Source: a virus
Taxonomy: Duplodnaviria; Heunggongvirae; Uroviricota; Caudoviricetes
IMG/VR virus record: IMGVR_UViG_2700989487_000010
Direction: 5' to 3' (one strand)
Length of the DNA stretch: 31,321 nt
The translations under genes and the position numbers were made by a program. The notes below the pieces were generated by a model that saw only the letters and a program-made list of their open reading frames with translations, had not been told where the DNA came from and did no database searches. Below, one piece after another: positions 24,724 to 25,219 of the stretch (within the stretch, counting starts at the first letter, position 1; each line of letters starts with the position of its first letter).

Positions 24724-24811
24724 CAGGCAGAATTGCCGGAGTAACAAAAAAGCGATAGATTACGCGCGGGTGCCTTTCGGCTGATGGTCGGAGGGAATAC
24801 CCGAAGGCCAG

Positions 24812-25048
24812 ATGTGGAAAGGCCCCGGAAAACATTTCTGTTTAACCGAGGCCCTAACACTTCTTACCTTCGCAAGTAGAAGGTTAGCGCCTCTCCTCTC
24901 AGGAGACAAGCGTTATGACGCAAATTCCGTTAAAAACCCTGTTACTTTGCATAACTGCGGTAGCGATAATCTGGATCCTCCACACATCACCGTGCGAGTT
25001 ACGATTCAGGTTTGCTGGCACGGAAATTGCGGCATTCTTACTATGTAA
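24812..25048 (+). CDS. mok-like overlapping reading frame (possible translational coupling frame for the hok-like toxin)
   Basis: 78-codon frame that starts upstream of, and overlaps almost all of, the hok-like ORF in a different frame, as mok does in hok/sok loci. Composition alone does not support a protein. Confidence 0.3.
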   Translation: MWKGPGKHFCLTEALTLLTFASRRLAPLLSGDKRYDANSVKNPVTLHNCGSDNLDPPHITVRVTIQVCWHGNCGILTM

Positions 25049-25055
25049 TAAGTAA
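24915..25055 (+). CDS. Hok/Gef-family type I toxin (small membrane peptide)
   Basis: 46-codon ORF, below the 60-aa cut-off of the supplied ORF track: MTQIPLKTLLLCITAVAIIWILHTSPCELRFRFAGTEIAAFLLCNK. Has an N-terminal transmembrane helix, then the family pattern (S)xCE(L)(R)(F)(R)...TE(I)AAF(L), compare HokB ...LYELRFRDGDKEVAALMA and HokA ...SLCELHIK...YELAAFLAC. Confidence 0.7.
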   Translation: MTQIPLKTLLLCITAVAIIWILHTSPCELRFRFAGTEIAAFLLCNK

Positions 25056-25143
25056 GATAACCGCGACGGGGGAGTAATCCCCCGTCAATCGGTTGCTAAG
25101 GTTGGTCGAAACGGCACCCTATCTCACAGACATGAACAACAAA

Positions 25144-25175
25144 CCCGCAGCGTAAAAACTGCGGGTTTTCTTTTT
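25144..25175 (+). terminator. Rho-independent terminator downstream of the hok-like gene
   Basis: Stem cccgcag / ctgcggg with 8-nt loop followed by ttttcttttt. Confidence 0.6.
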
Positions 25176-25219
25176 GGTGCCCTCACAAATGAGGGCACCA
25201 TACATAAGCAATAGGCATA

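Follow-up and report, generated by a model that had tools for sequence, protein, structure and literature searches.

Among the described systems closest to the element treated here are the hok/sok (parB) system of plasmid R1, for whose hok mRNA three states have been described (summarised with the R1 mechanism in PMC9841398), and the hokW-sokW system of the Stx2 prophage Sp5 (VT2-Sakai; Takada et al. 2021, PMC8621323). In R1, the mok frame has to be translated up to the Shine-Dalgarno (SD) sequence of hok for hok expression; its start (ATG 116-118) lies at an offset of 58 nt from that of hok, corresponding to 1 mod 3, and the distance from a GAGG box to the mok start is 8 nt in R1 as well as in hokW. 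On a broader scale, 32,532 Hok loci have been catalogued and hok has been found to be about 4-fold enriched in prophages (Escalera-Maurer et al., bioRxiv 10.1101/2025.08.07.668861), a study which leaves Sok, the mRNA structure and, explicitly, mok outside of its analysis. The locus described here is located on the IMG/VR record IMGVR_UViG_2700989487_000010, a stretch of 31,321 nt of tailed phage DNA (Caudoviricetes) referred to as the window in the following. As judged from its sequence and from predicted RNA folds, positions 24733-25176 very probably represent a complete hok/sok-type type I toxin-antitoxin module, carried as prophage cargo between ogr and a com-DNA methyltransferase gene pair, with the toxin open reading frame (ORF), the SD sequence, the tac, fbi, and ucb elements, the 3' hairpin, the Sok promoter, and the Sok stem all intact. 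An earlier note on the same DNA had proposed that a type I toxin of the Hok/Gef family is encoded here on a highly structured mRNA of the hok type and forms part of the prophage cargo downstream of ogr; this core reading is supported, and the gene upstream of the locus (24463-24723) is indeed identified as Ogr_Delta.

The hok toxin gene (24915-25055, plus strand) extends from the ATG at 24915 to the TAA ending at 25055 and encodes MTQIPLKTLLLCITAVAIIWILHTSPCELRFRFAGTEIAAFLLCNK, a peptide of 46 aa with one hydrophobic helix. The Hok family pattern which the earlier note had recognized in this ORF is confirmed by an alignment to the Pfam family HOK_GEF (PF01848), the check suggested there: residues 9-44 align with profile positions 7-42 of 42 at a score of 33.8 bits (E 2.5e-8), which is above the curated gathering cut-off of 22 bits. 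The peptide also matches PHROG 251 (E 2.8e-13), and the ORF is not a chance frame; the label of this group, "MokW-like host killing," is a family name when attached to P88-type genes and no evidence of orthology. The best-scoring NCBIfam model is that of HokA from E. coli K-12 (NF007290), with which the peptide has the C-terminal E-L/I-AAFLxCK motif in common, but it is not a HokA equivalog (27.7 bits versus a cut-off of 89) and also stays below the cut-off of the Hok subfamily NF007279 (25.2 versus 73 bits). As judged from these scores, which are far under the respective cut-offs, the peptide belongs to a branch of the Hok family other than the K-12 and R1 proteins. None of the PADLOC models matches the peptide.

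Among 1264 Hok peptides, seven positions show a conservation of more than 80%, namely M1, C16, T18, L30, C31, E32, and E41 (Escalera-Maurer et al., bioRxiv 10.1101/2025.08.07.668861). Six of these are kept in the window peptide as M1, C12, T14, C27, E28, and E37, while the seventh, the Leu preceding Cys-Glu, is replaced by Pro26. The same Pro variant is present in the toxic homologue 82_1289 (Ser-Pro-Cys-Glu), and the toxicity of R1 Hok survived an L30A exchange, as reported in the same preprint. Of 45 Hok homologues induced in that study, 42 were toxic, and the close relatives 72_1589, 72_1621, 79_1563, and 82_1289 were among those tested and are not found among the three non-toxic ones. Furthermore, the toxin ORF is intact, with 45-48 aa, in 18 of the 19 compared loci despite DNA identities of only about 60-73%, the exception being a frameshift-ridden record which is discussed below.

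The toxin gene is predicted to be part of a hok-type mRNA of about 409 nt (24768-25176, plus strand), which would extend from G24768 to an intrinsic terminator. The putative hok promoter (24733-24761, plus strand) consists of a -35 box TTGCCG (24733-24738) and a -10 box TAGATT (24756-24761) at a spacing of 17 nt. All aligned relatives have a spacer of 17 nt and a -10 box of the pattern TAnAnT (TAGATT, TACAGT, TAAATT, TAGAAT, TACATT), and of the -35 box the TTG is kept (with an offset of 1 nt in four loci), the remaining positions being variable. The Rfam model sok (RF01794) aligns over its full length (model positions 1-157 of 157) at 24768-24926 of the plus strand (E 5.4e-9) with 47.4 bits, compared to a gathering score of 59; none of the matches in the window reaches an Rfam gathering score. 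The predicted minimum free energy of the transcript 24768-25178 is -168.2 kcal/mol, compared to -118.4 +/- 5.5 kcal/mol for shuffled sequences (z -9.1). The strong terminator placed at 25144-25175 by the earlier note is present (25141-25175, plus strand) and consists of a 10-bp GC-rich stem (25141-25150/25159-25168), followed by the T-run TTTTCTTTTT. Some of the relatives retain it and the others have different hairpins in its place, the homology of the relatives ending a few bases past the fbi-like element described below. Matches of the Rfam models Thr_leader and BSnc120 at 25046-25212 were discarded as weak matches to the terminator hairpin. Directly past the terminator, a perfect 10-bp inverted repeat is observed at 25177-25200 (GGTGCCCTCA CAAA TGAGGGCACC), which is partly conserved in pC-Ec2-KPC (L009).

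The window RNA was folded at three lengths, as the full-length, fbi-less, and nascent molecule, and the three folds reproduce the three states described for R1 hok mRNA. They differ in the partner of a tac-like 5' element (GGGUGCCUUUCGGCUGAU; 24768-24785, plus strand), which is recognized from the folds and almost invariant in 14 loci, and which pairs with the fbi-like element in the full-length RNA, with the ucb-like box after removal of fbi, and with nucleotides 24786-24802 in the nascent RNA. The fbi-like element (GUUGGUCGAAACGGCACCC; 25101-25119, plus strand) forms 18 bp with tac, interrupted by one bulged C; this is the long-range pairing for which the earlier note had recommended a folding analysis, and it is kept in all 14 aligned loci. 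The metastable 5' hairpin of the nascent RNA is formed within the first 45 nt of the transcript (-19.6 kcal/mol), with nt 1-15 paired to 24786-24802 (plus strand), and the same is predicted for 14 of the 14 loci. The ucb-like box (GUGGAAAGGCCCC; 24814-24826, plus strand) pairs with 24846-24860 at full length and with tac when fbi is removed, and the Sok-target region (24846-24891, plus strand) then folds into a single long hairpin with the loop at 24868-24875. This region contains a box homologous to R1 SD-mok (CCGAGGCC, 24846-24853) and a dcb-like partner (GUUAGCGCC, 24883-24891); 14 loci retain its lower stem, in which G-C pairs have changed to G-U on one side, and a Y-U-N-R tetranucleotide is kept in the loop of the aligned loci. 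The next hairpin (24892-24906, plus strand) is formed by pairing of UCUCCU (24892-24897) with AGGAGA (24901-24906) and includes the hok SD sequence AGGAG (24901-24905), which lies 9 nt before the ATG and is sequestered in all three predicted states; the CUCC...GGAG of this hairpin is kept in the relatives. Toward the 3' end, a GC-rich hairpin (25065-25086, plus strand) with a 9-bp stem (25065-25073/25078-25086), extended by pairing of 25058-25063 with 25090-25095, corresponds to a hairpin noticed before at 25068-25090 and may act as the stop for 3' trimming.

Comparative support for these structures comes from an alignment (A1) of the window RNA with 13 related loci (n = 14; mean column identity 86%). 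An RNAalifold consensus of the 14 loci was set aside because it represents a hybrid of the tac/fbi and tac/ucb pairings, and the two states were therefore tested separately. With structures derived from the fold of the window itself, which inflates the values, 94.5% of the cells are paired for tac/fbi, 99.4% for the nearly invariant tac/ucb helix, and 97.6% for the 3' hairpin; in slid controls with the 3' partners moved by 1-3 columns, the overall pairing drops from 81 to 36-44%. Eight of the 16 tac/fbi pairs vary on the fbi side only and yet stay paired, and compensatory changes are observed in 4 of the 9 pairs of the 3' hairpin. When the RNAs are folded individually, the end-to-end pairing of tac with fbi and the metastable hairpin are each obtained for 14 of 14 loci, and the switch to ucb after removal of fbi for 11 of 14.

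A Sok-like antisense RNA, which had not been recognized in the earlier note, can be predicted from position, conservation, and fold. It would be transcribed from the minus strand over about 55-60 nt, from about 24873 to about 24815 (24815-24873), both ends being deduced from the sequence, and would consist of a variable single-stranded 5' tail complementary to the loop of the target hairpin, a GC-rich stem-loop, and a UUUCC tail. The predicted fold has -30.7 kcal/mol (z -4.9), and the same architecture is found in 14 of 14 loci, with an upper stem that differs among the loci while the pairing is retained by covariation. The putative Sok promoter (24881-24909, minus strand) consists of a -35 box TTGTCT (24909 to 24904), a 17-nt spacer, and a -10 box TAACCT (24886 to 24881), with the -10 box and the TTG of the -35 box being invariant in 14 loci. 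At the homologous position, hokW-sokW contains the sequence TTGCCT-N17-TAACCT, and the antitoxin activity was abolished by a mutation of the sokW promoter (VT2-Sakai; Takada et al. 2021, PMC8621323). The search for a minus-strand promoter and antisense RNA proposed in the earlier note thus leads to a conserved putative promoter and a predicted stem-loop at 24815-24909, with a promoter score below the threshold of a consensus scan.

Several points count against reading the locus as a complete hok/sok module. In addition to the scores below the NCBIfam and Rfam thresholds and the inflated pairing percentages mentioned above, the consensus promoter scan left both putative promoters under its threshold, and with 8 and 7 matches out of 12 consensus positions, respectively, both are weak; since the scan called neither of them, the assignments of the hok and Sok promoters rest on positional homology and conservation. 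As tac is nearly invariant, the support for the tac/fbi pairing consists of one-sided variation without any double compensatory change. The transcript ends, the Sok RNA, and the toxicity of the window locus are predictions, and the translation control step known from R1 is not simply transferable to a branch without a conserved mok.

This last point concerns the frame of 78 codons which overlaps hok at 24812-25048 (plus strand) and had been proposed to correspond to mok. The frame is present, as read from the sequence, and is out of frame with hok in the same phase as mok of R1, the offset of its ATG from that of hok being 103 nt and thus also 1 mod 3; the proposal does not hold for the position of its start and for the conservation of the frame. 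The product is not matched by any Pfam, NCBIfam, or PHROG model. In 16 of the 18 usable relatives, counted without the frameshifted record, the ORFs starting at the same ATG have lengths of 1, 1, 1, 8, 8, 15, 17, 17, 19, 19, 19, 22, 22, 24, and 61 codons, only the one of 61 codons reading into hok, and the remaining two relatives, which are lambdoid loci, lack the ATG altogether. Even where the toxins are most closely related, with a DNA identity of about 88-89% in the core, the frame stops 36 nt short of hok. A start codon of the R1 type was sought after the GAGG box (24848-24851), and neither ATG, GTG, nor TTG is found there in any of the loci; the ATG at 24812 lies about 35 nt upstream of the site homologous to the mok start of R1 and hokW, before the Sok stem and within the ucb/tac pairing region. 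No conserved alternative-frame ORF crosses the hok SD sequence either, any such ORF being present in only 9 of the 18 loci, where its start varies between -46 and -145, and a read-through frame being absent from the P88 allele. The 78-codon frame is therefore most likely incidental rather than a conserved mok. Expression of hok in this branch would accordingly either be controlled differently or satisfy the need for mok in some non-obvious way.

It is nevertheless conceivable that the locus works like R1 including its mok, in that the frame from 24812 is translated through the SD hairpin and needed to open it, with Sok blocking its initiation. The frame is open across the hok SD and start and shares its phase with R1 mok, whose translation is needed only as far as the hok SD; a GAAGG is found 4 nt upstream of its ATG, both being invariant in the 14 loci of the first set, and the predicted Sok duplex ends 1-3 nt past this ATG. 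However, the highly variable lengths of the corresponding ORFs, the two loci without the ATG, the frames ending 36 nt before hok in the closest toxin relatives, and the occurrence of read-through frames from any start in only half of the 18 loci are difficult to reconcile with such a function, as is the lack of any start codon after the box homologous to SD-mok. The location of ATG 24812 in the ucb/tac pairing region is alone enough to explain its conservation, and the ATG remains enclosed in the fbi-less fold, which together render this explanation rather improbable. It is far less probable still that the locus is a decayed, inactive relic without present function, as reportedly are several of the chromosomal hok loci of E. 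coli K-12. The missing conserved mok, the Pro in place of the usually conserved Leu before Cys-Glu, and the weak consensus of both promoters would fit such a relic, but every element is intact, 37 E. coli records contain the core at an identity of at least 99%, and the toxin ORF has been maintained in 18 of 19 loci over considerable divergence; moreover, the Ser-Pro-Cys-Glu variant 82_1289 and other close relatives are toxic, and R1 Hok remained toxic without the Leu.

For an intact hok/sok module, which is the preferred reading, the following sequence of events may be envisaged from the predicted folds and by homology to R1. The nascent 5' end would form the metastable hairpin, and the stable full-length mRNA would then be inert, as in R1, with tac paired to fbi and the ribosome-binding site of hok enclosed in a hairpin. 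Slow trimming of the 3' end back to the hairpin at 25065-25086 would remove fbi and activate the mRNA, as the 5' end is predicted to switch to the ucb-like box and region 24846-24891 to refold into the single target hairpin. As long as the short-lived Sok RNA is made, it would bind to the loop of the target hairpin and the duplex would be destroyed by RNase III; once Sok synthesis stops, Hok would be translated and damage the inner membrane. Such a stop might be caused by loss of the element, by shut-off of transcription by an infecting phage, or by induction of the prophage, and a role in addiction or defence, as suggested in the earlier note, appears plausible by analogy. The role may lie in prophage stabilisation, abortive defence, or help with lysis after induction, which are not mutually exclusive. 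According to work cited in PMC8621323, the plating of T4 is reduced by R1 hok/sok. For Sp5, sokW RNA was lost after addition of mitomycin C, HokW accumulated in a RecA-dependent manner, and deletion of the hokW-sokW locus halved phage release (PMC8621323). The same parts might accordingly have a different main role and aid the lytic cycle of the prophage itself by adding membrane damage after induction. Besides the Sp5 observations, the enrichment of hok in prophages (bioRxiv 10.1101/2025.08.07.668861) and the location of the locus beside the late-gene activator ogr agree with this alternative. HokW belongs, however, to a different, gef-like branch of 51 aa with its own mok and is encoded in a lambdoid rather than a P2-like phage, and the reported effect on T4 leaves defence equally open; lytic aid as the main role is considered somewhat unlikely.

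A comparison with the described systems shows that the window locus shares with R1 hok/sok the Pfam family of the toxin, the alignment to the Rfam sok model over its full length, a structured mRNA of about 400 nt with tac/fbi, ucb box, metastable 5' hairpin, and sequestered hok SD, and a predicted antisense RNA of about 60 nt whose promoter overlaps the hok translation-initiation region. In contrast to R1, the toxin has 46 instead of 52 aa, with 11 identical residues in a global alignment, no start codon is present at the position of R1 mok, the long frame starting about 35 nt further upstream, and the host element is a prophage rather than a plasmid. The toxin belongs to a branch of Hok proteins of 46-48 aa (clusters 72, 79, and 82 and peptide #1818 of Escalera-Maurer et al.) which share the architecture MxQ...C.T....IW..H.S.CE.R....G.E.AAFL.C and are flanked by RNA elements homologous to those of the window. 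Members of this branch are encoded after ogr in P88-like Peduoviridae, beside lom/tail-fibre genes in lambdoid/Shiga toxin (Stx) phages, and on IncI1, IncF, and IncC plasmids; the window peptide is 48% identical to that of P88 and 65% identical to that of 1720a-02. The hokW-sokW locus of Sp5/VT2-Sakai exhibits the same RNA layout and the same Sok -10 box TAACCT with 17-nt spacing at the homologous position, but HokW differs from the window toxin as a gef/HokD-like protein of 51 aa with 12 identities and a canonical mokW start after the GAGG box. The relatives of the window locus in Stx phages, which are mostly unannotated, were initially taken as candidates for the published hokW-sokW; this was rejected, as hokW/mokW is located at 57501-57713 and the relatives represent a second locus near lom. 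VT2-Sakai (Sp5, NC_000902.1) thus carries two hok loci, hokW/mokW-sokW at 57501-57713 (L016) and an unannotated 46-aa locus of the same branch as the window at 44532-44906 (L008), between lom and orf66. This second copy may have to be considered in studies of hokW-sokW deletion mutants.

Within the P88-like loci, the degree of conservation changes along the module. When positions 24724-25122 of the window are compared to the P88-like loci L002-L005 and L009-L011, the promoter and 5' untranslated region (UTR) are 97-99% identical to most of them (91% for pC-Ec2-KPC, L009), the Sok-target stretch 57-71%, the stretch with the Sok promoter and hok SD 67-73%, the hok coding sequence (CDS) 62-63%, and the 3' UTR 80-90%. 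The locus is therefore a mosaic, in which a conserved scaffold surrounds a specificity-determining core that was either exchanged or diverged. This pattern would fit an avoidance of cross-talk between paralogous hok/sok modules.

The host element is a P2-like prophage of E. coli (P88/Xuanwuvirus-type), which ends between the methyltransferase gene and flk/yfcJ and carries hok/sok as accessory cargo at its right end, followed by genes for a Com-type zinc ribbon and an N6/N4 DNA methyltransferase. A region of 477 nt recurs with 100% identity in several complete E. coli chromosomes, and 27 records match it at an identity of 99% or more; the identical DNA in public records shares the context of ogr, hok, com, and methyltransferase. 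The earlier note had regarded the locus as unannotated, which applies only to the ORF track supplied with the sequence: the RefSeq annotation of the identical DNA in NZ_CP028192 includes the same 141-nt CDS under the accession WP_032140709.1, "Hok/Gef family protein," inside a P2-like prophage and between an "ogr/Delta-like zinc finger family protein" and a "Com family DNA-binding transcriptional regulator." The exact peptide also appears as #1818 among the unique sequences in the supplement of Escalera-Maurer et al. (bioRxiv 10.1101/2025.08.07.668861), and the locus is thus already known. A literature search for hok in P2-like phages yielded nothing specific. Homologous loci with 80-83% identity are located after ogr or gpD in P88-like Peduoviridae (Xuanwuvirus), those with about 75% identity adjoin lom or tail-fibre genes of Stx and other lambdoid phages, and further ones are found on IncI1, IncF, IncC, and IncHI2 plasmids. 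The record omitted from the counts of relatives, NZ_CP035755.1 (21748-22452; L017), is an "extrachromosomal" 25-kb record of strain E110019 which duplicates the prophage end with many single-base indels and is frameshifted throughout; its ogr is frameshifted and its hok cut to 15 codons, probably reflecting an assembly error rather than biology.

Some further features were noticed in the surroundings of the locus and elsewhere in the window. Between gpD and ogr, a DUF2971 protein of 278 aa is encoded on the minus strand (23482-24318), which matches the PADLOC candidate defence family PDC-S31 (E 3.7e-27) and PHROG 1762. As NZ_CP028192 (L001) lacks the gene in a prophage end that is nearly identical otherwise, this interval resembles a second variable cargo slot. 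On the other side, the Com-type zinc-ribbon gene (25296-25502) overlaps with the gene of the N6/N4 DNA methyltransferase (25447-26238, plus strand), and the DNA upstream of this pair contains three GATC sites within 32 nt (25223, 25241, 25254), compared to about 0.4 expected per 170 nt, as well as a CGATCG...CGATCG inverted repeat at 25240-25258; this arrangement is reminiscent of the Dam-dependent control region of Mu com/mom. Finally, a serine recombinase (Resolvase and HTH_7 domains; 15861-16478) is encoded beside oppositely oriented small ORFs after the tail-fibre genes, and the region from 14567 to 16478, which includes its gene, looks like an invertible host-range segment of the Gin/Cin type.

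Taken by itself, the locus is an ordinary member of the best-studied family of type I toxin-antitoxin systems, whose enrichment in prophages was already known. For annotation, it provides coordinates for all RNA elements, including the predicted Sok, and marks the interval between ogr and com of P88-like prophages as a cargo slot. The point of wider interest is that an abundant, phage- and plasmid-borne branch of Hok proteins shows no conserved mok. We tentatively propose, as a possibility that falls a little short of even, that the branch of 46-48 aa has kept the whole R1-type RNA switch, with tac, fbi, ucb, the box homologous to SD-mok, dcb, the target hairpin, and Sok, but has lost mok, the frame in the window being a lineage-specific accident. 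If this is true, the translation of hok and its control by Sok must proceed without translational coupling, possibly via Sok-triggered decay by RNase III or via a Sok-dependent refolding which governs the weak SD hairpin. This would represent a small but real correction to the textbook picture of a three-gene system, in that mok-dependent coupling would not be universal in the family.

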